From: an uncultured Planctomycetia bacterium
GTDB taxonomy: Bacteria; Omnitrophota; Gorgyraeia; Duberdicusellales; 4484-171
Assembly (NCBI GenBank): GCA_964519975.1
Contig: CAZFML010000001.1
Coordinates: 1-28,812 of the forward strand
Direction of reading: 5' to 3'
Length of the DNA: 28,812 nucleotides
Below are positions 467-21,481 of the stretch, in pieces. Under the pieces are notes generated by a model that worked only from the letters and a program-made list of their open reading frames with translations, was not told the origin of the DNA and made no database searches. How positions within the stretch are numbered: the first letter of the stretch is position 1; every line of letters begins with the position of its first letter. The translations under genes were made by a program, and so were the position numbers.

Positions 467-1047
467 GAACATTCTTAAATCCGAATAAAGTTTTAAAACA
501 GCTTAAACTAAAACCAAACATAACAGCGGTTGATTTTGGTTCTGGCTCTGGAAAGATTGACTTTATGCTAGCGGTTAATGGAGCCTCTGTCGACGGCTGG
601 GAAGAAAACATGAATGTATTTTTAAGAAGCATTGCAATGCAGATGAAGATACTTAGAAGGGTTGCTAGCAGGTTTAATAACAGCTTATCTGATGAGGAAA
701 GTAGGTTATTGATTCAAGCAGTTACTAGGGTTAATTTTACTCAAGGCGACGTCTTTACTGCTCAGCCAGCGATTAATTTTAGAGATTATGATGTGGTTTA
801 TCTTTATTATCCTGAGCCCAAAGATGCCATAACGGTACATTTTCTTTCTGAGTTAGGGCGGGTTTTGTCAGATCCTCAGACTGGTATGCGCCCAGATGCC
901 ACATTGGTTATTTTGCGTCAACGAAAAGGCGAGGATCTTGTAATTGAAGGTTTTGATTTAGCTGATTCACGGGAAGTTACACTTACCGAATGCGAAAATG
1001 TTACTACTAGTGTTTTGTACAAATACCGCCTAGCTAAAGGAATTTCT
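463..1047 (+). other. Module 1: class I SAM-dependent methyltransferase-like domain
   Basis: Motif I AVDFGSGSG (DFGSGSG at 532-552), then VDGWE, FTQGDVF and YDVVYLY in the order expected for a Rossmann-type methyltransferase. Confidence 0.7.
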
Positions 1048-4000
1048 TTAGATAATGGAGGCAAGGAGAAATCTTCAGAAGGCTCAAGAGAAATCTCTCC
1101 CCAATTACTGGATAAAATCACAAAGATACAAAGTTGCATGAGAGAAATAGGTTTTACTAGACCGCTATTTTTAGCTGGTTCAACCTTGATTGATCGGCCG
1201 GGAGCTGATTTAGATCTTTTTGTTAGTGAGCGGTTTCGTTCAATATCTATGCGTATCCCTGGTGGTCCGCTTTCGAAATTAGAGGATTTAGTCAAACAAA
1301 GGCTTAAGCTAGATCGGTCAATAATTATACATTATCTACAGCGGGAGATGCTTCTTGAAGATGAATTCGATATAACTTTTAGATATGGTTTTCTTATAAT
1401 TATCTATCCTGATTCTTATGCTGTAGTTAATAAGCCTATAGCTCGGGAGATTTTTATGCATAATTTTATTAATCCAGAAGGCGGCGATAGTAGCAGCTGG
1501 CAAGCTTTAAGCCCCAACTTTGGTAGCGATTCTACCAATAATGATCAGGATGGTTCCGCTAACCTTGATAACGGGGGCAGCAGCAAAAAGAAAGTAAAAC
1601 GCCTAACTGCCCTCGAGAGATTTAAGGCAGACATTGATCAACTTCTTGCTGATCCACAAACCCCTCAGGTAAGCATAACGGCTATCATGGATTTTTACGG
1701 AGAAGGGTTAGAGCGAAATCAAGTATTGGCAGTTCTTTCCGAGAAAGGCTTTCAGCGTCAAAGCGACGAGATCTATTTACTTCCCAAATCCAGAGAAAGT
1801 CTGGATAACGGTGGCCAAAGAAGATTAACCGATCAAGACCAGAGAGATGAGTTGGTTCGCGATGATGGAGTTGGCGGGAGAGTTGTAAGGAGCAAGACTC
1901 CTTCGGGTGCTTATATATATCGTACCGAATCTAGTCCCGGTGACTACCGCAACTATACTGTTAATCCTAGTGCTGAAGAGGTAGTTTCTGCTTATCAAGC
2001 TTACAACTATGAACCAACAGCAATGAATGTAGATCCTAGAGTTCTTAGGAGCATAAGAGAGTGGATTGAAGGCAGATATAAGAGTCTAAAACAAGATCGG
2101 TATTTAAAGCTAGGAGGTTTGCGTCAGAGGGGAGGCGAGGTAAGTCCGTCGCAGTTATATCCCAAGCCAGAGTTTCTTGTTTTTGAATACCGTATGGTTT
2201 TAGGCGGAAAGTTACCTAATAGCGGCAACGCTCTTTCAGCAGATTTGGTATTTTTAGCTGAAGCCGGACGCATAAAAGCTAAAATACTTTCTCCTAAAAC
2301 AGGCGCTGAATACTTTAATCCTCAATGGTTCTCTGACAAGGAAGATTTTCCTCAAGTTAGGGCTGAGCTTGAGCGAGGAAGACCAATCAAAGATTTTATA
2401 GATTCTCGGGAGTCTCTAGATAATGGGGGAAGGAGGGAAGTTTCGAATGAGTTTTCCGGTGGTGGACGACGGACCAATGAAGATCGTGTAGATTTTGTAT
2501 ATTTTCTGGCCGAGTCGTATTTAAATTCTTTGTTTAGTTTTCGTAAATTAAGAGCAAACAATATAGATGTTGCTGGTATGTATATCCCAGCGATTTCAGA
2601 AACGGCAGTTAGAAAGAAAAGAAAAAAATGGCATGTGTCTGATAGTGAGATTGCCGAGCGGGCTTTCCAAATTATGTCTGGGCCGGGGTTTAGACATCAA
2701 ACTGGCTATGCTCTCGAGGGTCTCCTTGATTCCATCTTAGCTTCCGGAGGAAGAAATCAGGCTGCTGATCAGCTGGGAGTTGATCGAACCAGTCTAACTC
2801 GTTGGGTTAATAGCTTACCTAATGATCTATTGGCTAGTTTAGATCAGAGATTAGTTGATAAGAAAAGACAGGTTCTTGACTTATTTGATGAGAACAACAC
2901 TAAGGATTCAGCCAGTTCTTTAGACAATGGCGGTCAAAGGAGCCTTATTGTTTCGGAAGGAGATATTGTTTTTGCTAGATTAAAAGATAACCAAACTTTA
3001 TCCATACCCTATCTCTATTCTGACTCAGCCTTTATAGCCAGAGCCCATACTAAACAAGGAGAGCTTTTGCATATACTTGCTCACATCGGACATAGACCTG
3101 AGCTTCAGGATGGTAGTTATACCGTTGCATCTTCAATAGACCACCAGATGGGATTTTTAATCCGCAATCTTGAACATCTAGGCATGTCTTGGATAGAGTT
3201 TTATCTTAATCTGTTTACTGGCGGAGGAGCCTTAATTTATCAAAGAGCCGAGGAACTGAAAAGGACTTTGGGCCCAAAAGTTAAAGTAGTAGTAAATGAG
3301 AGCAAAAATCGATACCGAACAGCCAGAGATGACCCTGAGGCTTTAGAAGTTAACAATCAGGGCTTTAGAGTCCTTCATAATATTACCCACCGAGGAGTTG
3401 CTCCTACAGTTTATTCTTGGATAGCTTTTTCTGATAGAAAAGATGCAGTTTCTAGATCAGAGCAGAGAAGGAGAGCCTTTGCCCGAAGGCATCTTCGAGC
3501 TCTAGGTCATAAGCCAGATAGCCAGTCTAAATCAGCTTCGCTTGATAACGGCGGTAGTGAATCTGTTTTGGTAACCCGCAATTTTGCAACTATTCAGGGA
3601 GATCAGTTTATTTTGCAACAACCTATGGTTAGGAAAGATGTCGGTAAGGCAAGACTGATCTATCAGGGAAAAAGAAATTACCTCAGAGAAGTTTTTGATA
3701 GGGCAAGAGATACAATTAAGGCTGATGCTGTTCTGTTGTTAGAGCTAGATAGATTAAGAGAAGTAGAGATTCGTGAAGGAAATTTTACTCAGATTTTAGC
3801 TTTGTACATTGATAATGCACTCTATCTTCATGGAGAACTGCTATATCTAGCTGAAAGATACGATAGATTATTAGCTATTTTATTTTTTATTGCACGAACT
3901 CAAAGTTATCCCCAAGCTTCTATCTTTGGTAGTAAAATTTTTGCTCTTGGGCATAGCAGAGAAGTTGTAGCCAGGCAGTTAGAATCTGGAGTGCAGCAAC

Positions 4001-7000
4001 AAGATACAACCCTTACTCATTTTCCTTTTTATACTGAATTTTCTGCAGTCTCTGGTAGCAAGTTTAAGGCCTTATATAGAAAACTCTATGGCCAAGAGGC
4101 TAATCCAGAGGTAGCACGCTTTGCTCAAACTCTTGATAGTCTTAGTCCAGTAGTTATCCCGCTTTACCATGCTATTACTGATGATCGAGGTAAGCCCTTT
4201 TATCCAGAAGGTTGTGGGATGTTCTCGGAAGCTGTGGGTAAATATTTAAGGGAAAGAGGCTTTAAGGCTTATCTTACTAGTAGCTATGATAGTGAGCACG
4301 AGTCTATCATGATAGAGGTAGGTAAGGGATGGTTTTTACTTGACTACACTCCTGATCAGTACCTTCAGAAATCAAAAAATTTTAAAATAAACCCAGTTAT
4401 TATTCCTTTAGATACTGTTGCACAGTGTTTAAACCTTTTCTTACCGTATTATCCTGCTTCACATATGCACGATCGAATTCCTGATGTTGATGAACCGATG
4501 ATGGCTAAAAGTCACCAACTTTATGAAACTATTGTTACCCGCTTAAAGAGTAGCTCTTTAGACAACGGTGGCAGAAAAGTATCTGAATCGGTGTCAGACT
4601 ATAAGATAATGACTAACCAGGGTGAACGTAGGCTTTTGGTTGAAGCTGCAACAGCACTGGTTCATAAACTTAGAGGACAATCCTCGCAACGGACTATTGT
4701 CGCTATCCCTGGTAGCGGTTATTGGGCCGCTAAACTTCTTGAAATAGTTTGGACTAGGCTTTATCCAGATGATCGCATAAAACTCATAACCATGGATGAA
4801 ATAGCAGCTGGTGGTGGGGAAATGGCTAGGACAGAAGCACTAAGGATTCAAGCCAGAGGAGAAGATTTAATTATTTTAGATGACGTTCTTAGCACTGGTC
4901 ATGAAAAAACGATGCGCATAACTCAGTTGGGCATTAATCCTCAAGATTTAAATGCTATTCTGGCGGTGTTGCTAGTTGCACCTGACTTAGCAAGAGGTAG
5001 CTTTGAGTATAGGGATTCTTTTGTCTGTTGTGAAATTCCTCTAGTTTACGGAGAGGCAGCAAATTTAGCTATACACGAAGAGGGTATATGGCGAAAATTA
5101 CCTAAGTGGCATTTTTTGAGAAAGTATTGGGATTCTATTATTAATTCCCCACAGCCTACAGCTGAAGAATACTTTCGGCACAACAACCAGCTTTTAAGCG
5201 AATTCCAAAGGATGGTTAAAGCGGATTCCCTCGACAACGGTGGCCGCTTTTTAAGCAGAAAAATTAATAATGATCATCTACGTAGCGGAACCAGAGTTCG
5301 GCAATATGACTCAAAGAAAGGCTCATCGAGAATCAGCATAGGAGAATCAGCTGATATTATTCCTGAGCAGTATTTGATGCATTGCAATGGTGTTGTTATT
5401 TATGACACGAAAGTTAAGAAGGCAGCTCTGATTCATGCTGGTATGGAAACAAGCTTTGAAGATGCAGAAGATATATTGAGGCAGGCTTTCGATTTGTTAG
5501 AAATAGATATTTCTGATGTAAATTATATAAGTGAAAACATTTTGACAGTTATTGTTAGGGCTAAGCTAGAAAACGCAGAAAAAATTGAGACTTTATTTGC
5601 CAAGGCTTCTGATAATCTTAAATTACCAAGACTGGAGTCAGATCTTAATGATCATTGGCGCAATAGCATGCTTCGGTTTGTGGTTAGCGAAGGTCTGTTT
5701 TTAGCCTTATTGATCGGCGCCGAGAACGAGAGGATTGTTCATTCGATTAACCTAGATGAATTAGCTCATAGAGGAAATTTTGTCGCTAACAGGCGTTCTC
5801 TTAACAACGGCGGTCAGGTCAAATCCGCTCAAGGTGACAGCAGCAGAGATGCTATTGAGTATGGTTTCGGAGTAGATGTTAGTCGTTCGGGAAGAGAGTT
5901 AAAGGTCTATCTTGGCGATCAGGCTTTACATATTGTTTTTGGGGATGATGTTTTGCGTAATAGAATAATCGGCTCCTTGCCATTTGGAGTAAAAGTTGCC
6001 GCCTTCAGGCCGACTTCATATCAATTAGGTTATCGGATCTGCAAGGCTCTGTTGGAATTATTTCCTGAAGATATGCGTCAGGTAATGAGGTTAAGTTCTA
6101 GTGGGGTAGGCATGGCCTTAGCTTTTCCTGAACAGTTTTTTGTTAGCTGCCGGGTTAAATTTTATCCAAACAGGATAGAGATATCTATAGCAGAGAAATC
6201 TTTGCTGGTTTTCTCTTACGATTATGGAAGCGAAGATCCGTTTGGAGGATTGATAATGGCTCCTTTCCTTTTCGCCGATGATGCCGAAGATATACTCGGT
6301 AAGCAGTGGTCTGAGTTTTGGCGGATTAAGCATGCTAAAGTTGTTACTCCTGCCCCTCTATCGGATGGACCCAATCACTTACCTATGGCAATTTTTCAGA
6401 ACAGCCTTGTGCGCGAACTGAATAGAAGAGGAGAGGCAGATGTCTTACGTTTCCTCTTAGAACGAGCTATCTCTGAACCGGGAAGTATCAGGACATTTAA
6501 AGGGTTTAACGCCCCTGCATTCAATGCTGGCTTAGTTCAGGAAGTTTTAGGAGAACTTACTCACGATATATATTTAGAATCTCCTCAAGAGGTGGAGGAA
6601 GACTTAGTTTTTCCTGTAAGCGCAGAGCAGACAGGATTCATGCTTTCTGCGTTCGCATCTCCTAATGTCTGGGTAGGAGCAGAACCGTTAGCGGCTTTAC
6701 CCTCACAGTCAAACCTTGACAACGGCGGCCGAAGAAGAACCTCGGCAGAGGGATTGGCTCTTCGGGATAAGAGCAAGTTTGTAGCTGGAGGTTTAATTAA
6801 TCTAACCATTGCCACAATAATACTCGGAGGTTTTTATCTGCTCAGCCATGGCTATCTCCCAGCCAGTAAAATCTGGGCTTTACACAGCATCAATATTAGT
6901 TTCTACTTATCGGCTATTCTAGCTCTAGCTTTGCCACTGTTGTGGTGGTTTATGTTAAGAGACGAAGTTCCGGCTTTGGAGAGTCGCGATTCTCTGCTAA

Positions 7001-10000
7001 AGGGTGAAGGAACTGGTAAATTAGTAGTTTTAAGTACAGTCGTTACTTCTTTGGTCATTGCCATATTTTGCGCTTTAGCCCATCCGCATCATATCCCGAT
7101 GTTTATCCTTACCTTTATCATGCTTTTATTTCCGCTTAATGTATTTTTTAACGGATTTTTTGCTATTGCCTTTGATGTTCCGGGTATTGTCCAGGGCAGA
7201 CCATTTAGAAATCGTGGTTACACCAACATTCCGGTTGAAGTAATTGAAGATACCAGGGGATTAACCGCTACGCTTTTAGTTCCGATATACGATGAAGATT
7301 TTACTAAGGTTGAACCTACCCTGGAAGCAGCCTTAAGAGAGGTGGCTGATTTTAATACTCATAATGGAGAAGCCAGAGTCTGGGTTTGTGATGATGGCTT
7401 GCAGAAATTTTCCGATAATGATGTTGAGGGATTTTATCAAGCTATTCAGGACAAATTAGCCGGAGGAGTTGTTTTAAGTAAAGATGAAGAAAATTTCCTT
7501 AGGCGGATGCAGTTTTATCAGAATCATCCCGAGATAGTAGTTGTTGCCCGACCTTATCCGGTACAGGGAGATGCTGATACCCAGAGAGCCGGTAGTTTTA
7601 AGAAGGCCAGCAATCTTAACTACTCAATCAGACTTTCGGAAATGATTGATACCCGGATTAAGCAAGGAGATAGTTTTGCTGACTCCCTAGCTGCAGTAAG
7701 ACTCGAACAGCCTAAATACGCCTTAGGATATATGCGCGGAGAAGGAGTTGTCGGAGATTACTTATTGTGTCTGGATAAAGACAGCTATCTTATCCCTCAA
7801 GGGGTATTAAGGCATACTTTAGGAGAGTTTCTTAATGATCAAAGGTTAGCCTTTACTCAGCATCGGATAATACCTTTAAACGAGACTGATTCTTTTTATT
7901 CGAGGATTAGTGGGTATTTCCTGCGGATGCTTTATGGTTATGCTTTACCGGTAAAATCTATTCTTGGCGGAATGGTTCCTTTGATGGGGCATAATTTCAT
8001 CTTAAGGAAATCTGCTTTAGTTGAGAGCGATTTGTGGCGGGAAGATAGAGCTACTGAGGATATTAACTTAAATCTTACTCTCCAGACACTGGGTTATCAT
8101 AGCAGGTTCGTAGCTTATCCTAATATGGATTTTGGCGAAGAAGTAACTACCAGCTTTTCCGATGATGCTGGCAAGTTCAGCCGCTATGCCTACGGTATGA
8201 TTGAGATTGTTTTTAATCCTTTGTTAAGCTGGTTAAGAAGAGGGCCCTTGACTCAAGGGATGATAAAGTTTATCTTTTCGACTTCAGCCAGAATAGAGCA
8301 TAAGCTAGATTTTCTTTTTTATGCTTTATCTTATCTTAATCTGGCTATGATTATACCGTTTAATCTTTTTGGAATTAGTTATCCTTTGCTTTGGGGGGTT
8401 ATTCTGGGTAATTTTGTCTTTTTAATTATCCTGTTTACGATTGCAATACCTACAATGATGACCTTTATGACTCATAAAGGTACTAATGCCATACATCATC
8501 AACATAGAAATCTCCTATCAGCAATTGCTTATAATGTTTCACTGGGTTATCTTATGGGGCTTTCCTTTATCGCTTACTCTCTGGGTATAGCCAAAAGCAT
8601 TGTTTTAGCTCTGTTTACCCGGCAGGCGGATTTTAAAGCTACTCGGGTCGATGAGCGTTCTGAGATGAGCACAAAAGAAGCTTGGCAGGAGTTAGCAGTA
8701 ACTAGCAGCGCAACCATAATTGTTGGACTCCTGGCAGCTTTAAGTTTCTGCACTTATATTATTAGAGGCGAACCTAGTTTTGTAATCTATTTTGCCCTTT
8801 ATCCAATAGCAGTTCAACTTTTAATACCTTATTTGTTTAACCCTTACCTATCGCGGTTGGTAGGTCTGGGGAAAAAAGAGAGTGCTTCTTTTGCTGAAAG
8901 ATTAGAGCAGCGAATGGAGCTAATTTCCCAGAGAGAGCAAACCACAAACCAGTTTCAGCCTCAAACTCAACCCGGTTTAAGACGCTTATTAGCCAGAGGT
9001 GTTTTATTTATCGAAGTCCTTGGCTTAGGGGTAATATTTCGTCTTTATACCGACCGGCTAAGTGCCCTTGAATATGCTTTAGCAACGATTGTTCTGCCGG
9101 TAATATTGTTTTTATTTTATCGGGCCTGGCTAGCAAGGACCGATAAAAGAGCCGGTTTTCGGGCTTATCAGCTCAGCGCTCTTTCTTTGTTAGGGACGAT
9201 GTTCGGGGTGGCTTTAGTCTGTGCTATGTTTCGAGGCCATGTTTTAACCTCGGTAGACAACATTAGTTATTTTTTCGAGTATGATCAATATTGGGGGTTG
9301 ATCGAGAACGTTTCAGGTATCTATATGTTCTTTTTAGCGACTATTTTAATTGCAGCTATTGGCTTTAGCCTGACCGTAAAATATTTTATCGGAGAGTTTA
9401 AAAGAGCTTCTCTTGGCAAAATCGTAAAAGTCTTTATAGCGGCAGTTATTTTACCTCTGGCTTTTATTATGTTAATGCTCGATTCAGGTTATGCCTATGG
9501 CGGCTGGGGGATAGTTTTTCTGGGAATTACTTTTAATTTAGCAATAATTATTGCTGGTATTAAATTACGCGATCGTATTCATCCCAGTTCTCGACTGAGT
9601 CCGGCCAAGGATAAATCAGAGGAGAAAAGTCCTGGCAGGGCCGGAGGCAGGGAGATTCAAAATTTAGGCCTTCCTATACCCGATGAAGCTTGGAGGGGAT
9701 TCAATGAAGTGGCTTGGGCTGAAAGTTGGCTTGAGTGGTCTCAGAGACAAGTTCGTTCTCCTCCAGCAAAGGATCAGAACCAAACTCCTTCCGATTGCCC
9801 GGAAAAAAAATCCTTCGATAACGGCGGCCGTAGACGGTCGAGGAGGAAAAAACCAACTCGCAGAAGTAACCAATCTTCAGGTTTAAGTCCCGTCCCTACG
9901 GTTGCTAGGGGCAGCCTAGTTAAGGGTTTAGTTACCTATATCAATATAGCCCATGATTCAGAAGAAGATTTCTTAAGATTCAAAGAATATCTTGATCAAG

Positions 10001-17644: not shown

Positions 17645-18606
17645 CCGCCTATATAATCCGCCGCCTGCTTATTTTTATCCCTCTTTTGTTAATAGTTACT
17701 TTTATTGGCTTTGCTTGTATAAATCTGGCCCCGGGAAATTATTTTGATAGTTTAAGGCAAAATCCGCAAGTTTCTCCGGAAACCATAAAACAATATGAGC
17801 AGAAGTATCATTTAGATAAAAATGTCTTTGTTCAGTATTATCACTGGTTACTTAATGTTATCCGACTCGACTTCGGTTATTCCTTTAGCAACAAAGCTCC
17901 GGTAATAAAGGTATTAAAGTCAAGAATGTTTAATACTTTTATTTTATCAATTTCAGTTCTATTGTTTAGCTGGTTTATTGCTTTGCCTTTAGGGATATAT
18001 TGTGCGGTTAATCAATATAAATTTAGTGATAAGTTTTTCTCCTTGTTGTCATTTATTGGTTTATCAATTCCTAACTTCTTTTTGGCTTTGCTACTTTTAT
18101 ATTTAGCTTCAGTAACCGGGATTCTGCCCACTGGAGGTATGCATTCAGTTGGTTATGAGAACTTATCGCCTTGGCTAAGATTCTGGGATGTAGCTAAGCA
18201 CTTAATAATTCCCACCCTAGTTATTGGTACTTCAAGCATTGCTGGCTTGCAAAGACTCATGCGGGGGAATATGTTGGAAGTACTTAGGGCTCAGTATATT
18301 ACAACTGCTCGCGCTAAAGGGCTACCGGAAAAAAGAGTAATCTATGTTCACGCCCTAAGAAATGCTATAAATCCGATGGTAACTATGTTTGGCGGTACCT
18401 TAGCCGGTCTTTTAAGCAGTGCCGCTTTAACTGAAATTATCTGCAGTTGGCCGGGAATGGGCAAGCTAATGCTAGAAGCAGTAATGAGCCAGGATTTGTT
18501 TTTAGTGGTTGGCAATATGCTGATGATGAGTTTTCTTTTGGTTTTAGGCTATTTGATTGCTGATATAGTTTTGGCCTGGGTAGATCCGAGAATTCAATAT
18601 CAGTAG
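17641..18606 (+). CDS. ABC transporter permease (OppB/DppB-like)
   Basis: YIIRRLL start; EAA loop YITTARAKGLPE...HALRNA; ATGA overlap with the upstream gene. Confidence 0.93.
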   Translation: MTAYIIRRLLIFIPLLLIVTFIGFACINLAPGNYFDSLRQNPQVSPETIKQYEQKYHLDKNVFVQYYHWLLNVIRLDFGYSFSNKAPVIKVLKSRMFNTFILSISVLLFSWFIALPLGIYCAVNQYKFSDKFFSLLSFIGLSIPNFFLALLLLYLASVTGILPTGGMHSVGYENLSPWLRFWDVAKHLIIPTLVIGTSSIAGLQRLMRGNMLEVLRAQYITTARAKGLPEKRVIYVHALRNAINPMVTMFGGTLAGLLSSAALTEIICSWPGMGKLMLEAVMSQDLFLVVGNMLMMSFLLVLGYLIADIVLAWVDPRIQYQ

Positions 18607-18617
18607 AGATAAAAACA

Positions 18618-19706
18618 ATGAAGAGCAATAGTCAGTTAGCAGCAGGTTTTAGAAAACTAAAGCGCCACAACTTAGCCATGGTTGGTTTTTGGGTACTTTT
18701 GGTTTTATATCTATCGGCAATCTTTGCCGGATTTCTGTCACCTTATCACTACGATAACGAAGAAAGAAGTTTAAGCTATGCTCCGCCGTCAAAGATTCAT
18801 CTTGTTAGTCAGGAAGGTAAGTTAACCTGGCCGTTTATTTATAAAAGAAGTTTTAGCTTCGATGAATTTTATAATCGGGTATACAAGGAAGATCAATCTA
18901 AAGAATATCGGTTTAAGTTTCTAATCCGCGGCGATAGCTATTCTATCCTCGGGTTAGTTAAGAGCAATATTCATCTTTTTGGAGTTGAAAAAGGGGCTAG
19001 GCTTTATCTTTGGGGTGCGGATTCAAGGGGTAGGGATTTATTTTCACGAATTATTTACGGCGGTCAGGTCTCTTTATCGATCGGCATTATCGCGGTGGTA
19101 ATTTCTCTATTGTTGGGACTGTTTTTTGGCGGAATTTCCGGCTACTTCAAAGGAAAAACTGACACTATAATTATGCGAATTTGTGAAATTATCATGATGA
19201 TTCCAGCCTTTTATCTTATGCTTTCTTTGCGGAGCATGTTTTCTTACAGTTTAAGTTCTTTGCAGATTTATTTTGCTATAGCTTGTATTATGTCTTTTAT
19301 TGGCTGGCCGGGAATGGCTCGAATTATCCGGGGAATGAGTCTGTCTCTAAGGGAGAGAGAGTTTGTTTTAGCGGCCCGGGCTTTAGGAGTATCACATCTT
19401 AAAATTATCTGGCGTCATATTATACCGCATACTTTCTCCTACTTAGTAGTTGCAGTATCGCTTTCAATTCCCGGCTATATTTTAGGTGAGTCGGGTTTAA
19501 GTCTTTTAGGTTTAGGTATTCAGGATCCCTATGCTTCTTGGGGAAATTTGTTGTCAGAGTCAATGGCTATTGCCCAGATTAAGTTTCATCCCTGGATTTT
19601 GATTCCGGGAGTATTTATTTTTCTTACGGTAATGGCTTTTAACATCTTAGGTGATGGTTTACGAGATGTTTTTGATCCTAAGATGACCATTGGAAGAAAA
19701 TCTTAA
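18618..19706 (+). CDS. ABC transporter permease (OppC/DppC-like, with extended periplasmic loop)
   Basis: WGADSRGRDLFSRIIYGG, EFVLAARALG, ESGLSLLGLGI, FNILGDGLRDVFDP. Confidence 0.93.
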   Translation: MKSNSQLAAGFRKLKRHNLAMVGFWVLLVLYLSAIFAGFLSPYHYDNEERSLSYAPPSKIHLVSQEGKLTWPFIYKRSFSFDEFYNRVYKEDQSKEYRFKFLIRGDSYSILGLVKSNIHLFGVEKGARLYLWGADSRGRDLFSRIIYGGQVSLSIGIIAVVISLLLGLFFGGISGYFKGKTDTIIMRICEIIMMIPAFYLMLSLRSMFSYSLSSLQIYFAIACIMSFIGWPGMARIIRGMSLSLREREFVLAARALGVSHLKIIWRHIIPHTFSYLVVAVSLSIPGYILGESGLSLLGLGIQDPYASWGNLLSESMAIAQIKFHPWILIPGVFIFLTVMAFNILGDGLRDVFDPKMTIGRKS

Positions 19707-19707
19707 T

Positions 19708-20679
19708 ATGGGAAACATTTTAGAAATTAAGAATCTCCATACTTATTTTTATACTGAAAACTCTTTAGTTAAAGCTGTAGAAGGTCTAGATTTATCAGTA
19801 AAAAAAGGCGAAGCCTTAGGTTTAGTCGGTGAATCAGCTTGCGGAAAAACTGTCACTGCTTATTCGGTAATGCGCTTAATTGAAAAACCAGGAAAAATTG
19901 TTAAAGGTGAAATTCTTTTCGAGGGAAAAGATCTCTTAAAGCTTTCCCAAAACGAGATGCAAGGGGTTAGAGGAAATGATGTTGCTATTGTCTTTCAGGA
20001 GCCGTCAATGGCCCTAAATCCTTTATACCCAATAGGTTTTCAGATTGGTGAGGCAATGCCTTTTCACCAAAAGGGTATTGACAGTTCCAAGCAAAGGCAA
20101 AGAGTTTTAGAGCTCTTAAGGCAAGTTGGCATACCTGACCCTGAGGTTCGGATTAAAGATTATCCGCACAATTTAAGTGGCGGTCAGGCTCAACGGGCAG
20201 TAATTGCTACGGCCTTAGCTTGCAGGCCGAAACTTATCATTGCTGATGAGCCAACTACTAGCTTGGATGTTACAGTTCAGGCTCAGATCATGGATCTTTT
20301 TACCCAGCTAAAAAAAGAAGGCAATTTTACCTTTATTTTAATAACTCACAATTTAGCTCTTTGTTCAAAGGTAGTTGATCGAATAGCCATAATGTATGCT
20401 GGAAAGATCGTTGAGCTTGCTGAGACCAAAGAGATTTTTAAAAATCCTTTACATCCTTATACTAAGGCTTTGTTTTCATCAATACCTAAAGGTGATGCTG
20501 TAAAGAGAAAACTTAAAGTTATTGAGGGCTCAGTAGCTGATCCAGCCAACAAGCCCTCGGGTTGTCATTTTAATCCCCGTTGTCCGGAAAATAAGGAAAA
20601 TTGCCAAAGAGGTTATCCTCAATATCGCGAGATAAAGCCTGGGCATTGGGTAAGTTGTCATTATGCAAAACTAGGTTAA
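19708..20679 (+). CDS. ABC transporter ATP-binding protein (OppD/DppD-like)
   Basis: Walker A GESACGKT, LSGGQAQR, IADEPT, C-terminal Cys-containing oligopeptide-ABC tail. ATG 19708, just after the oppC-like stop, is preferred over TTG 19690. Confidence 0.92.
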   Translation: MGNILEIKNLHTYFYTENSLVKAVEGLDLSVKKGEALGLVGESACGKTVTAYSVMRLIEKPGKIVKGEILFEGKDLLKLSQNEMQGVRGNDVAIVFQEPSMALNPLYPIGFQIGEAMPFHQKGIDSSKQRQRVLELLRQVGIPDPEVRIKDYPHNLSGGQAQRAVIATALACRPKLIIADEPTTSLDVTVQAQIMDLFTQLKKEGNFTFILITHNLALCSKVVDRIAIMYAGKIVELAETKEIFKNPLHPYTKALFSSIPKGDAVKRKLKVIEGSVADPANKPSGCHFNPRCPENKENCQRGYPQYREIKPGHWVSCHYAKLG

Positions 20680-20680
20680 C

Positions 20681-21481
20681 ATGGGAGCAATTTTAGAAGT
20701 AAGAGATTTAAAGAAGTATTATCCGGTTAAACGGGGGATACTCTATAAGACTGTTGACTGGATAAAAGCGGTTGACGGAGTAAGTTTTTCTCTTGAACGC
20801 GGTAAAACTTTAAGTCTAGTTGGTGAGTCTGGTTGCGGAAAGACTACTTTAGCCAGGGCAGTTGCCCGCTTGATTAATCCCGATTCAGGATCAGTTAATT
20901 TTTTAGGCCACGAGATAGCAAAGGGAAGTTTAAGCCAGGTAAAGCAGTTTCGCCGCGATTTACAAATCATTTTTCAAGATCCTTTTAACTCTTTGGATCC
21001 ACGGTTTACAGTAGCTAAGATTATTGAAGAAGGCCTTTTTGCTTTACATGCTGCTAAGGGGAAAGCCGAAATCGCTGAGCTATCAGCTAAGATGCTTGAA
21101 AGAGTGGGCTTACCTTTAGACAGCTTAGAGCGTTTTCCGCATGAGTTTAGCGGAGGACAACGTCAAAGAATCAGCATCGCCCGTTCTTTAATTCTTAATC
21201 CTCAGCTGCTTATTCTTGATGAACCGGTTTCATCGCTGGATGTTTCTGTCCAGGCTCAGATAATTAATCTGCTTCTAGAACTGCAGCAGAGATTTAAGCT
21301 AAGTTATCTTTTTATTGCTCATGATTTAAATGTAGTAAAGTGCCTAAGTGATGAGATTTGCGTTATGTATCAGGGCAAGATCGTTGAACAGGCTAAAACA
21401 GAAAAGTTATTTAACAATCCTTCACATCCTTATACTAAAAAGTTACTTTCCTCATCACCGCAGCTAGATAAAATCAGATGA
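20681..21481 (+). CDS. ABC transporter ATP-binding protein (OppF/DppF-like)
   Basis: GESGCGKT, FPHEFSGGQRQR, LDEPVSSLDVSVQAQI, HPYT. Confidence 0.93.
   Translation: MGAILEVRDLKKYYPVKRGILYKTVDWIKAVDGVSFSLERGKTLSLVGESGCGKTTLARAVARLINPDSGSVNFLGHEIAKGSLSQVKQFRRDLQIIFQDPFNSLDPRFTVAKIIEEGLFALHAAKGKAEIAELSAKMLERVGLPLDSLERFPHEFSGGQRQRISIARSLILNPQLLILDEPVSSLDVSVQAQIINLLLELQQRFKLSYLFIAHDLNVVKCLSDEICVMYQGKIVEQAKTEKLFNNPSHPYTKKLLSSSPQLDKIR

Follow-up and report, generated by a model that had tools for sequence, protein, structure and literature searches.

In viral polyproteins, short consensus cleavage sites lie between unrelated proteins and are processed by enzymes such as picornavirus 3C, potyvirus NIa and coronavirus 3CL. 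Integrons keep interchangeable gene-sized units between repeated attC sites served by the IntI integrase, and units are lost and reordered at these sites with some polarity. Likenesses to both are found in a giant open reading frame (ORF) of an uncultured Omnitrophota bacterium, part of which lies in the 28,812-nucleotide (nt) stretch of DNA analysed here (the window; GenBank contig CAZFML010000001.1). Its modules are bordered by a short peptide, the tag, present 15 times in the window in the form [S/N]-[L/F]-[D/N]-N-G-G. The closest described proteins are the giant "Archaeovorins" of the same phylum, which likewise have mixed enzymes and membrane helices and whose size is matched by the 45,891-aa ORF at the same locus in a congener (G001). 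Their cleavage is proposed, with the cleavage points stated as unknown, in the accessible part of the preprint by West-Roberts et al. (10.1101/2023.11.21.568195). According to the same text, an N-terminal C39 or S8 peptidase and a SecA DEAD domain are common, although not universal, in ORFs of this type. Related accounts deal with "multi-enzyme metabolic clusters" (Nielsen and Lui 2026, 10.64898/2026.06.07.730766) and are given by Seymour et al. 2023 (PMC10066038).

Two other known systems are comparable. MARTX toxins are large bacterial proteins with conserved ends and variable central domains that are released by cleavage; they carry glycine-rich/RTX repeat arms and an InsP6-activated cysteine protease domain (PMC4453568, accessible part). 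Polyvalent proteins also combine many unrelated domains in one chain, with zincin-like HExxH peptidases proposed as releasers, but they have 2-15 domains, belong to mobile elements and show no border motif in the accessible part of their description (Iyer et al. 2017, PMC5512222). The terms "linker", "polyprotein" and "DGG" are absent from the accessible text of the 2023 preprint, "motif", "linker", "cleav" and "polyprotein" from that of the 2026 preprint, and "cleav", "linker" and "polyprotein" from that of Seymour et al. A border tag is described in the accessible parts neither of these three sources nor of PMC12419801 (the Lipocone paper), PMC5512222 and PMC4453568, and no description was found in the literature searched, with supplements and subscription papers outside its scope.

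The Omnitrophota ORF resembles a viral polyprotein in that unrelated proteins share one frame and a short consensus stands between them, in which a hydrophobic residue precedes an amide residue and the latter precedes Gly. It differs in lying on a bacterial chromosome, in having up to 100 sites, in the swapping of modules between lineages and in a protease that is so far putative. With integron arrays it shares gene-sized interchangeable units, loss and reordering at repeated sites and some polarity. Unlike attC, the sites are 14-17 nt long, in frame, under peptide selection and devoid of a hairpin or R-box consensus, and the units are fused in one ORF. The likeness to MARTX lies in the general plan; the cargo here is mostly metabolic and regulatory, and no Pfam match to MARTX repeat arms or the cysteine protease domain occurs in any giant-ORF piece scanned. 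The tag is best likened to a junction in a viral polyprotein that would at the same time be a joint between cassettes; it is not an attC site, a double-glycine leader or a MARTX element.

Selection on the border peptide

A first-pass annotation had observed that two of the copies, linkers 3 and 4, both encode SRESLDNGG in the frame of the long ORF although 8 of their 9 codons differ. This is correct: 10 of the 27 nt differ and the Asp codon GAT alone is common to both. Independent Logan contigs cover positions 1764-2244 and 2016-3206 with zero differences, so that the two linkers are not assembly errors. The S-R-E extension occurs in this one pair only (0.07 such pairs expected among 105) and therefore lies outside the conserved signal. 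Since random synonymous codons would differ at 5.9 of 9 positions anyway, the pair alone is weak evidence, and it is the larger copy set that carries the claim of peptide conservation. Among the 15 window copies Leu is indeed encoded by five codons (TTA, CTT, CTG, CTA, CTC) and the first Gly by all four, as the annotation had stated. All 15 [DN]NGG strings in the window lie in the frame of the giant ORF and none in the other five frames.

The copy set comprises 225 tags from 7 genomes, 224 of them with full flanks and 222 with a hydrophobic residue at position -1; 186 non-redundant copies remain after removal of near-identical flanks. In 87,714 amino acids (aa) of giant ORFs the pattern [SP][LF]DNGG occurs 130 times against 0.013 expected. 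For the window copies the core has a pN/pS of 0.06-0.12 and the flanks one of 0.85-1.05, a contrast that is partly circular as the copies were picked by their peptide. For this reason a test starting from DNA was used, in which all 14-mers of the giant ORFs with at most 3 mismatches to the commonest form were collected, one genome (G441) being excluded as a near-twin of another (G011). In-frame near-matches number 145 against 3.6 in the control, compared with 2 against 3.2 in the other frames and 5 against 5.8 on the reverse strand. Of the 270 mismatches in this set, 208 fall at third positions, 50 at the first base of the Leu codon and 12 at the other nine positions. Purifying selection on the peptide, as the annotation had suggested, is thereby borne out, and the dN/dS-type and per-position comparisons proposed with it agree: core pN/pS is low, and third positions are far less conserved than first and second ones.

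The variants define what is conserved. Among one-mismatch forms in the 87,714 aa, none affects the Asn or the first Gly, 4 affect the Asp (all to Asn) and 9 the second Gly; at the Leu position only hydrophobic residues are found. In a congener at the same locus (G001) there is 1 variant at the Asn and none at the Gly. The common core is hydrophobic-[D/N]-N-G and not GG. Judged from these sequences, recognition by a protein would be the likeliest cause of the constraint.

Module borders, host dialects and a codon seed

Tags mark module borders. None lies inside any of 35 Pfam domain matches, where 9 would be expected. Their median spacing is 302 aa and their flanks are short, polar and rich in Ser, Lys and Arg. 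When giant proteins of different genera are compared, 26/88 alignment ends fall no further than 15 aa from a tag in each of the two proteins, against 0.38 expected, although these pairs are not independent, G011 and G441 being near-twins; for G001 the count is 17/45 against 0.2 expected. The module before linker 3 corresponds to the last module of G001, which ends there at a stop codon; a G001 module that lies between PLDNGR and PLDNGK has 63% identity to the one that follows linker 4. The module between the two linkers has no Pfam or NCBIfam match, and a search of 1.84 billion representatives returned itself and 2 weak repeat-type matches, with no real homologue. Whole cytoplasmic enzymes are found between tags in the giant ORFs (PGI, GDH, hexokinase and acetate kinase), and the sigma-70 module of the window has a homologue that is internal in the giant protein of G011. 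The idea that tags precede captured start codons was rejected, as Met is not enriched after them (45/186 against 59 expected).

About 10 residues after linker 4, at 2449-2472, the string SGGGRRTNEDR aligns with the tag end and module start NGRRTDEER of G001. From the alignment, it may be a decayed older tag that was replaced by linker 4.

The form of the tag varies between hosts. In a pattern search of 401 genomes a high count of SLDNGG was seen in the genome of the window (G000) only; a search of a 74-genome family gave high counts in G000, G011, G441 and G439; a few copies of this type occur in G446, G148 and G009. A phylum-wide spread of this dialect is not borne out by the 401-genome search, although both searches demanded GG and missed the PLDNG[K/R] form, so that the spread is a lower bound. 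G001, of the same genus as G000, has 100 copies, 94 with Pro before the Leu and 81 with Lys or Arg replacing the second Gly. In the 17 border pairs that involve G001 (11 of its tags), the G001 side always reads P-L-D-N-G-(not G) while the other side has GG in 16; the tag therefore follows the host gene and not the module. A further congener at the same locus, G002, has an SSP-type motif in place of DNG tags.

Some arrangements of these dialects are also of note. On contig C5 of G002 (L257, L266) the junctions read SSP or ASSP, with biased codons AGC TCG CCG and a repeated SSEPGS, and the modules in common with G001 start and end near G001 tags. The 3′ part of contig C17 of G011 (L002-L003) has hybrid junctions that combine SSP with SLDNGG, tandem tags spaced by 8-13 residues, and SSPAHDMRYT as a repeated unit shared at the DNA level. 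In G148, a genome of another family, contig C12 (L038) holds a block of 5 tags and the rest of its giant ORF is devoid of them; one of the modules there matches, at 72% identity, a G441 module that is tagged on either side, a likeness that suggests transfer between families.

The annotation had held that the linker is conserved as peptide and not as DNA. The second part is overstated: third positions lean to one seed, the lean is correlated within copies, and insertions and deletions break at tags. The seed is CTC GAC AAC GGC. Against context-matched backgrounds the 186 copies contain CTC 40 times (7.4 expected), GAC 65 times (39), AAC 124 times (62) and GGC 113 times (56), and the four silent positions agree within copies above chance (p 1e-4). 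The bias is repeated independently in G001 for CTC, AAC and GGC, not for GAC. Local composition does not explain it, as the flanks are free of it, C3 being 0.49 at the tags and 0.20 in the flanks; of all Leu codons in the genome CTC is used least (6%). The exact 14-nt seed is present in 22/186 copies, from 5 genomes and between unrelated flanks. Linkers 3 and 4, with 1 and 0 of the 4 seed bases, are among the most drifted copies of the window and thus overstate the lack of a DNA signal. The seed score climbs towards the 3′ end of the gene in the window (rho 0.79) and on contig C17 of G011 (rho 0.65).

The near-twins G011 and G441 are mostly 88-100% identical in long alignments. When they are compared, 13 tags of G011 and 8 of G441 share one flank only, while for 25 and 26 both flanks are shared. 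The gains and losses of modules have their breakpoints at tags. Such breakpoint tags have a higher seed score in G011 (p 0.018), where several of the cases derive from one repeated unit.

Two other origins of the seed were considered and rejected. A Chi-like or uptake-like word is not supported. Away from the giant ORF, G000 shows no excess of any 6-8-mer contained in the seed (z at most 2.2), and a single 9-mer attains z 3.1, from 4 counts; the 17-mer seed has 11 near-matches in this genome, every one of them a tag. A repeat derived from elsewhere is equally unsupported by a metagenome scan, in which 108 stretches gave mostly single matches in GC-rich DNA; one stretch (L119) falls in a long low-GC ORF, and no multi-copy tag array was found.

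A putative cleavage signal and its rivals

We regard it as moderately probable that the tag is a polyprotein cleavage signal, cut by a putative protease at or next to Asn-Gly, which doubles as a recombination joint. A host-encoded and co-evolving factor would read the tag, so that a module common to several genomes would carry the resident dialect in each. A protease is favoured as this factor because whole cytoplasmic enzymes and an internal sigma factor sit between tags; it would recognise the tag and cut the giant chain into separate proteins. By analogy with viral Gln/Gly sites the cut would most likely fall at the Asn-Gly bond or just after that Gly, as these are the two positions that almost never vary. 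The DNA of the tag would offer a short stretch of homology for the gain, loss and reordering of modules. New tags would be copied from, or crossed over with, existing ones, and hence young copies would share the seed codons while old ones, such as linkers 3 and 4, would have drifted at silent sites. A more far-reaching proposal is held only tentatively, as a possibility: a natural "fuse-and-cleave" cassette system, in which one chromosomal gene would have gathered up to about 100 foreign or duplicated genes in frame and a seed of 14-17 nt would be at once a cross-genus crossover point and the code for a site of a lineage-specific protease, with tag and protease shifting dialect together within a genus.

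Several observations weigh against a cleavage signal of this kind. The C39 and S8 domains reported for Archaeovorins were not found here: searches for C39, S8 and C13 peptidases were empty in 5 tag-bearing genomes (65-91% complete), and Pfam detects no C39 or S8 domain in the head of the G011 protein or the first 12,800 aa of G001, the head of the G000 gene being unassembled. HExxH strings occur in G001 (7) and in the G011 head (1) and in neither of two G000 pieces; by comparison with the zincin-like peptidases of polyvalent proteins (PMC5512222) they are candidate peptidases. TatC was not found in the 5 genomes. The unrelated SSP motif of the congener G002 requires a different or very plastic protease. 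Many alignment ends lie away from tags, some modules exceed 1,000 aa, a single tag is found in the 15,520 aa of the long N-terminal head of G011, and the pair counts are not independent, given the near-identity of G011 and G441. At the DNA level neither G439 (two contigs) nor G001 shows the 3′ gradient, and the breakpoint tags of G441 have no significantly higher seed score (p 0.26).

A double-glycine leader of the C39 type was also considered as the nature of the tag and rejected, the second Gly being replaced in 9 copies and in 99/100 G001 copies and C39 not having been found in the 5 incomplete genomes. The G011 head has only 19 Cys in its 15,520 aa. The motif R-[A/G]-P-P recurs in the giant proteins and in two G001 cases (aa 17624 and 20454) is followed by HExxH. 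Judging by the motif, these segments may belong to zincin-like domains and are candidates for the protease that would process the chain.

The tag could instead be bound and not cut, as a docking or hand-over signal by which a translocase, chaperone or modifying enzyme deals with the chain module by module. Such a role is unlikely, though peptide selection and host dialects fit binding as well as cutting and no processing peptidase of a known family turned up in the 5 genomes. Two small neighbouring residues that hardly vary, as in Asn-Gly, are typical of a scissile bond, and a sigma-70 factor and cytoplasmic enzymes tethered between membrane modules would be hard to use uncut. SecA-like domains are described in giant proteins in the accessible text of West-Roberts et al. 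(10.1101/2023.11.21.568195), but Pfam shows no SecA match in the heads scanned (that of G011 and the first 12,800 aa of G001). One region of the G011 head looks SecA-like by eye; Pfam does not name it, and it has matches in 7/74 genomes of the family, G000, G439 and G446 not among them.

That the tag is the target of a dedicated site-specific recombinase or integrase, which inserts modules in frame and keeps the peptide only secondarily, is improbable. It would explain the exact seed between unrelated flanks, the use of the rarest Leu codon, the breakpoints at tags and the 3′ polarity seen in two genes. Yet variation affects the third positions of most copies and spares the first and second ones, drifted copies also serve as breakpoints, and the dialect shifts within one genus. 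The annotation's view that the sites are not attC-like holds, in that they share neither a hairpin nor a flank consensus. Of four sites folded as 60-mers on both strands, only linker 3 reaches z < -2, and its stem is missing in the other three; no consensus emerges from the flanks of the 186 copies. Reading the seed consensus on both strands reveals no RYYYAAC/GTTRRRY core site, no dedicated search for such sites having been run. Tyrosine recombinase matches (PF00589) exist in all 5 genomes, none of them typed as IntI. In G000 they lie on contigs C2, C57, C10 and C25; C1 and C19 carry none, the giant gene being unassembled on its 5′ side.

Still less probable is a tag that acts with no partner protein, through self-cleavage or rearrangement by Asn-Gly succinimide chemistry or as an insulating structural turn. 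Asn-Gly promotes tight turns and succinimide formation, and it is the invariant pair of the tag. However, succinimide formation leads mostly to deamidation rather than cleavage, and a tag without a partner would not account for the need for a hydrophobic residue, for the S/P and G/K/R positions that differ by host or for the unrelated SSP dialect of a congener. For the codon bias alone, selection for accurate translation at critical residues, with no role in recombination, can practically be dismissed: conserved Asn in 55 ordinary G000 genes does favour AAC (0.42 against 0.33 at variable Asn, p 0.024), but there is no such effect for CTC, GAC or GGC, CTC is a rare codon, and neither the 3′ gradient nor one-sided flank sharing is predicted.

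The giant gene and its neighbourhood

The host belongs to Omnitrophota: among 120 listed homologues of the segment 24847-25998, all 22 that carry an organism name come from Omnitrophota/Omnitrophica. The gene is known in pieces, with about 5,100 aa in the window and probably a further 4,960 aa on contig C19 (14,880 nt), which is a single open frame, open at both ends, with 11 further tags and helicase, RidA and phosphorylase modules; the two are unjoined in the assembly. G001 has a complete open frame of 45,891 codons at the same locus (G001:C2:53363-191035), with 100 PLDNG[K/R]-type tags and with thioredoxin, ATP-grasp and M54 peptidase matches in its first part. Pfam matches in the window comprise GT2, sigma-70 and a weak M23, and the giant ORFs of relatives contain radical SAM, HEAT and methyltransferase domains. 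This mixed content of glycosyltransferase, methyltransferase, peptidase, radical SAM, HEAT and helices, the membrane helices being called by hydropathy only, fits an Archaeovorin-type ORF.

The 5′ end of the true giant gene is probably absent from the window. The best relatives of the gyrA end at positions 1-552 are mostly from Patescibacteria, and in one of these loci the gene that follows gyrA has 77% identity to the methyltransferase start of the window, with no match beyond DFGSGSG. The join to the giant ORF falls, in frame, at this common motif (532-552). G000 has a second gyrA on contig C5, and in G439 the homologue of the first module extends upstream as a giant ORF. Positions 1-552 are therefore probably misassembled Patescibacteria DNA, and it is likely that neither the annotated start nor the first ~30 residues of the 5,133-aa protein are real. 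The foreign 5′ DNA has no exact match among GTDB genomes. Logan contigs show no joints at tags and almost no cover of positions 1-550, a result that was not counted as evidence; no RNA run is listed among the sequencing runs that hold the sequence.

On the 3′ side a peptide/nickel-type ABC transporter operon (15923-21481) follows the giant gene. The operon is also present in G001, where the giant ORF lies upstream of it, and in G002, and a similar one follows the giant gene of G011. Downstream of tag 13 the twin-arginine-like string DRRDFLK is followed by a hydrophobic stretch; as TatC was not found in the 5 genomes it is not countable as a working export signal.

Table 1. Tags, modules and flanking DNA of the giant ORF, in window coordinates.
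Feature	Position	Strand	Remarks
Patescibacteria-type gyrA end and first 30 methyltransferase codons	1-552	+	outside the tag system
Giant ORF, 3′ part, ~5,100 codons	553-15858	+	Omnitrophota giant multi-enzyme ORF
Tag 1, SLDNGG	1045-1062	+	ends methyltransferase-like module; G439 homologue also ends at a tag
Tag 2, NLDNGG	1561-1578	+	orthologous to last PLDNGK of G001
Linker 3, SRESLDNGG	1789-1815 (core 1798-1815)	+	preceding module ends one residue earlier
Module between linkers 3 and 4, 196 aa	1816-2403	+	without Pfam family
Linker 4, SRESLDNGG	2404-2430 (core 2413-2430)	+	next module related to a G001 module (63% identity)
Tag 5, SLDNGG	2917-2934	+	orthologous to a G001 PLDNGK
Tag 6, SLDNGG	3538-3555	+	
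Tag 7, SLDNGG	4555-4572	+	
Tag 8, SLDNGG	5227-5244	+	
Tag 9, SLNNGG	5797-5814	+	
Tag 10, NLDNGG	6712-6729	+	followed by multi-helix membrane module with GT2 domain (Pfam 7963-8406)
Tag 11, SFDNGG	9811-9828	+	
Tag 12, SLDNGG	11170-11187	+	
Tag 13, SLDNGG	12334-12351	+	twin-arginine-like DRRDFLK (12382-12402) starts 10 residues later
Tag 14	13264-13293 (core 13276-13293)	+	exact seed codons; 29 nt identical to tag 15; followed by weak M23 peptidase match (13588-13734), under Pfam cut-off
Tag 15	14224-14253 (core 14236-14253)	+	exact seed codons; opens sigma-70 module (regions 2 and 4 at 15037-15246 and 15661-15753)

Whether the Omnitrophota proteins of 10,000-147,000 aa act whole or cut is an open question, and the lack of known cleavage points is named in the accessible part of the 2023 preprint (10.1101/2023.11.21.568195) as having blocked analysis. 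A strict border tag supplies candidate cut sites, at which giant ORFs can be split into real domains for annotation. The window adds a proof of peptide selection that does not presuppose the peptide, evidence that each tag takes the form of its host gene and not of its module, and a codon seed, with breakpoints, which would account for the movement of modules. If cleavage is true, these bacteria would employ a polyprotein strategy on a large scale, with a protease specificity that has not been described.

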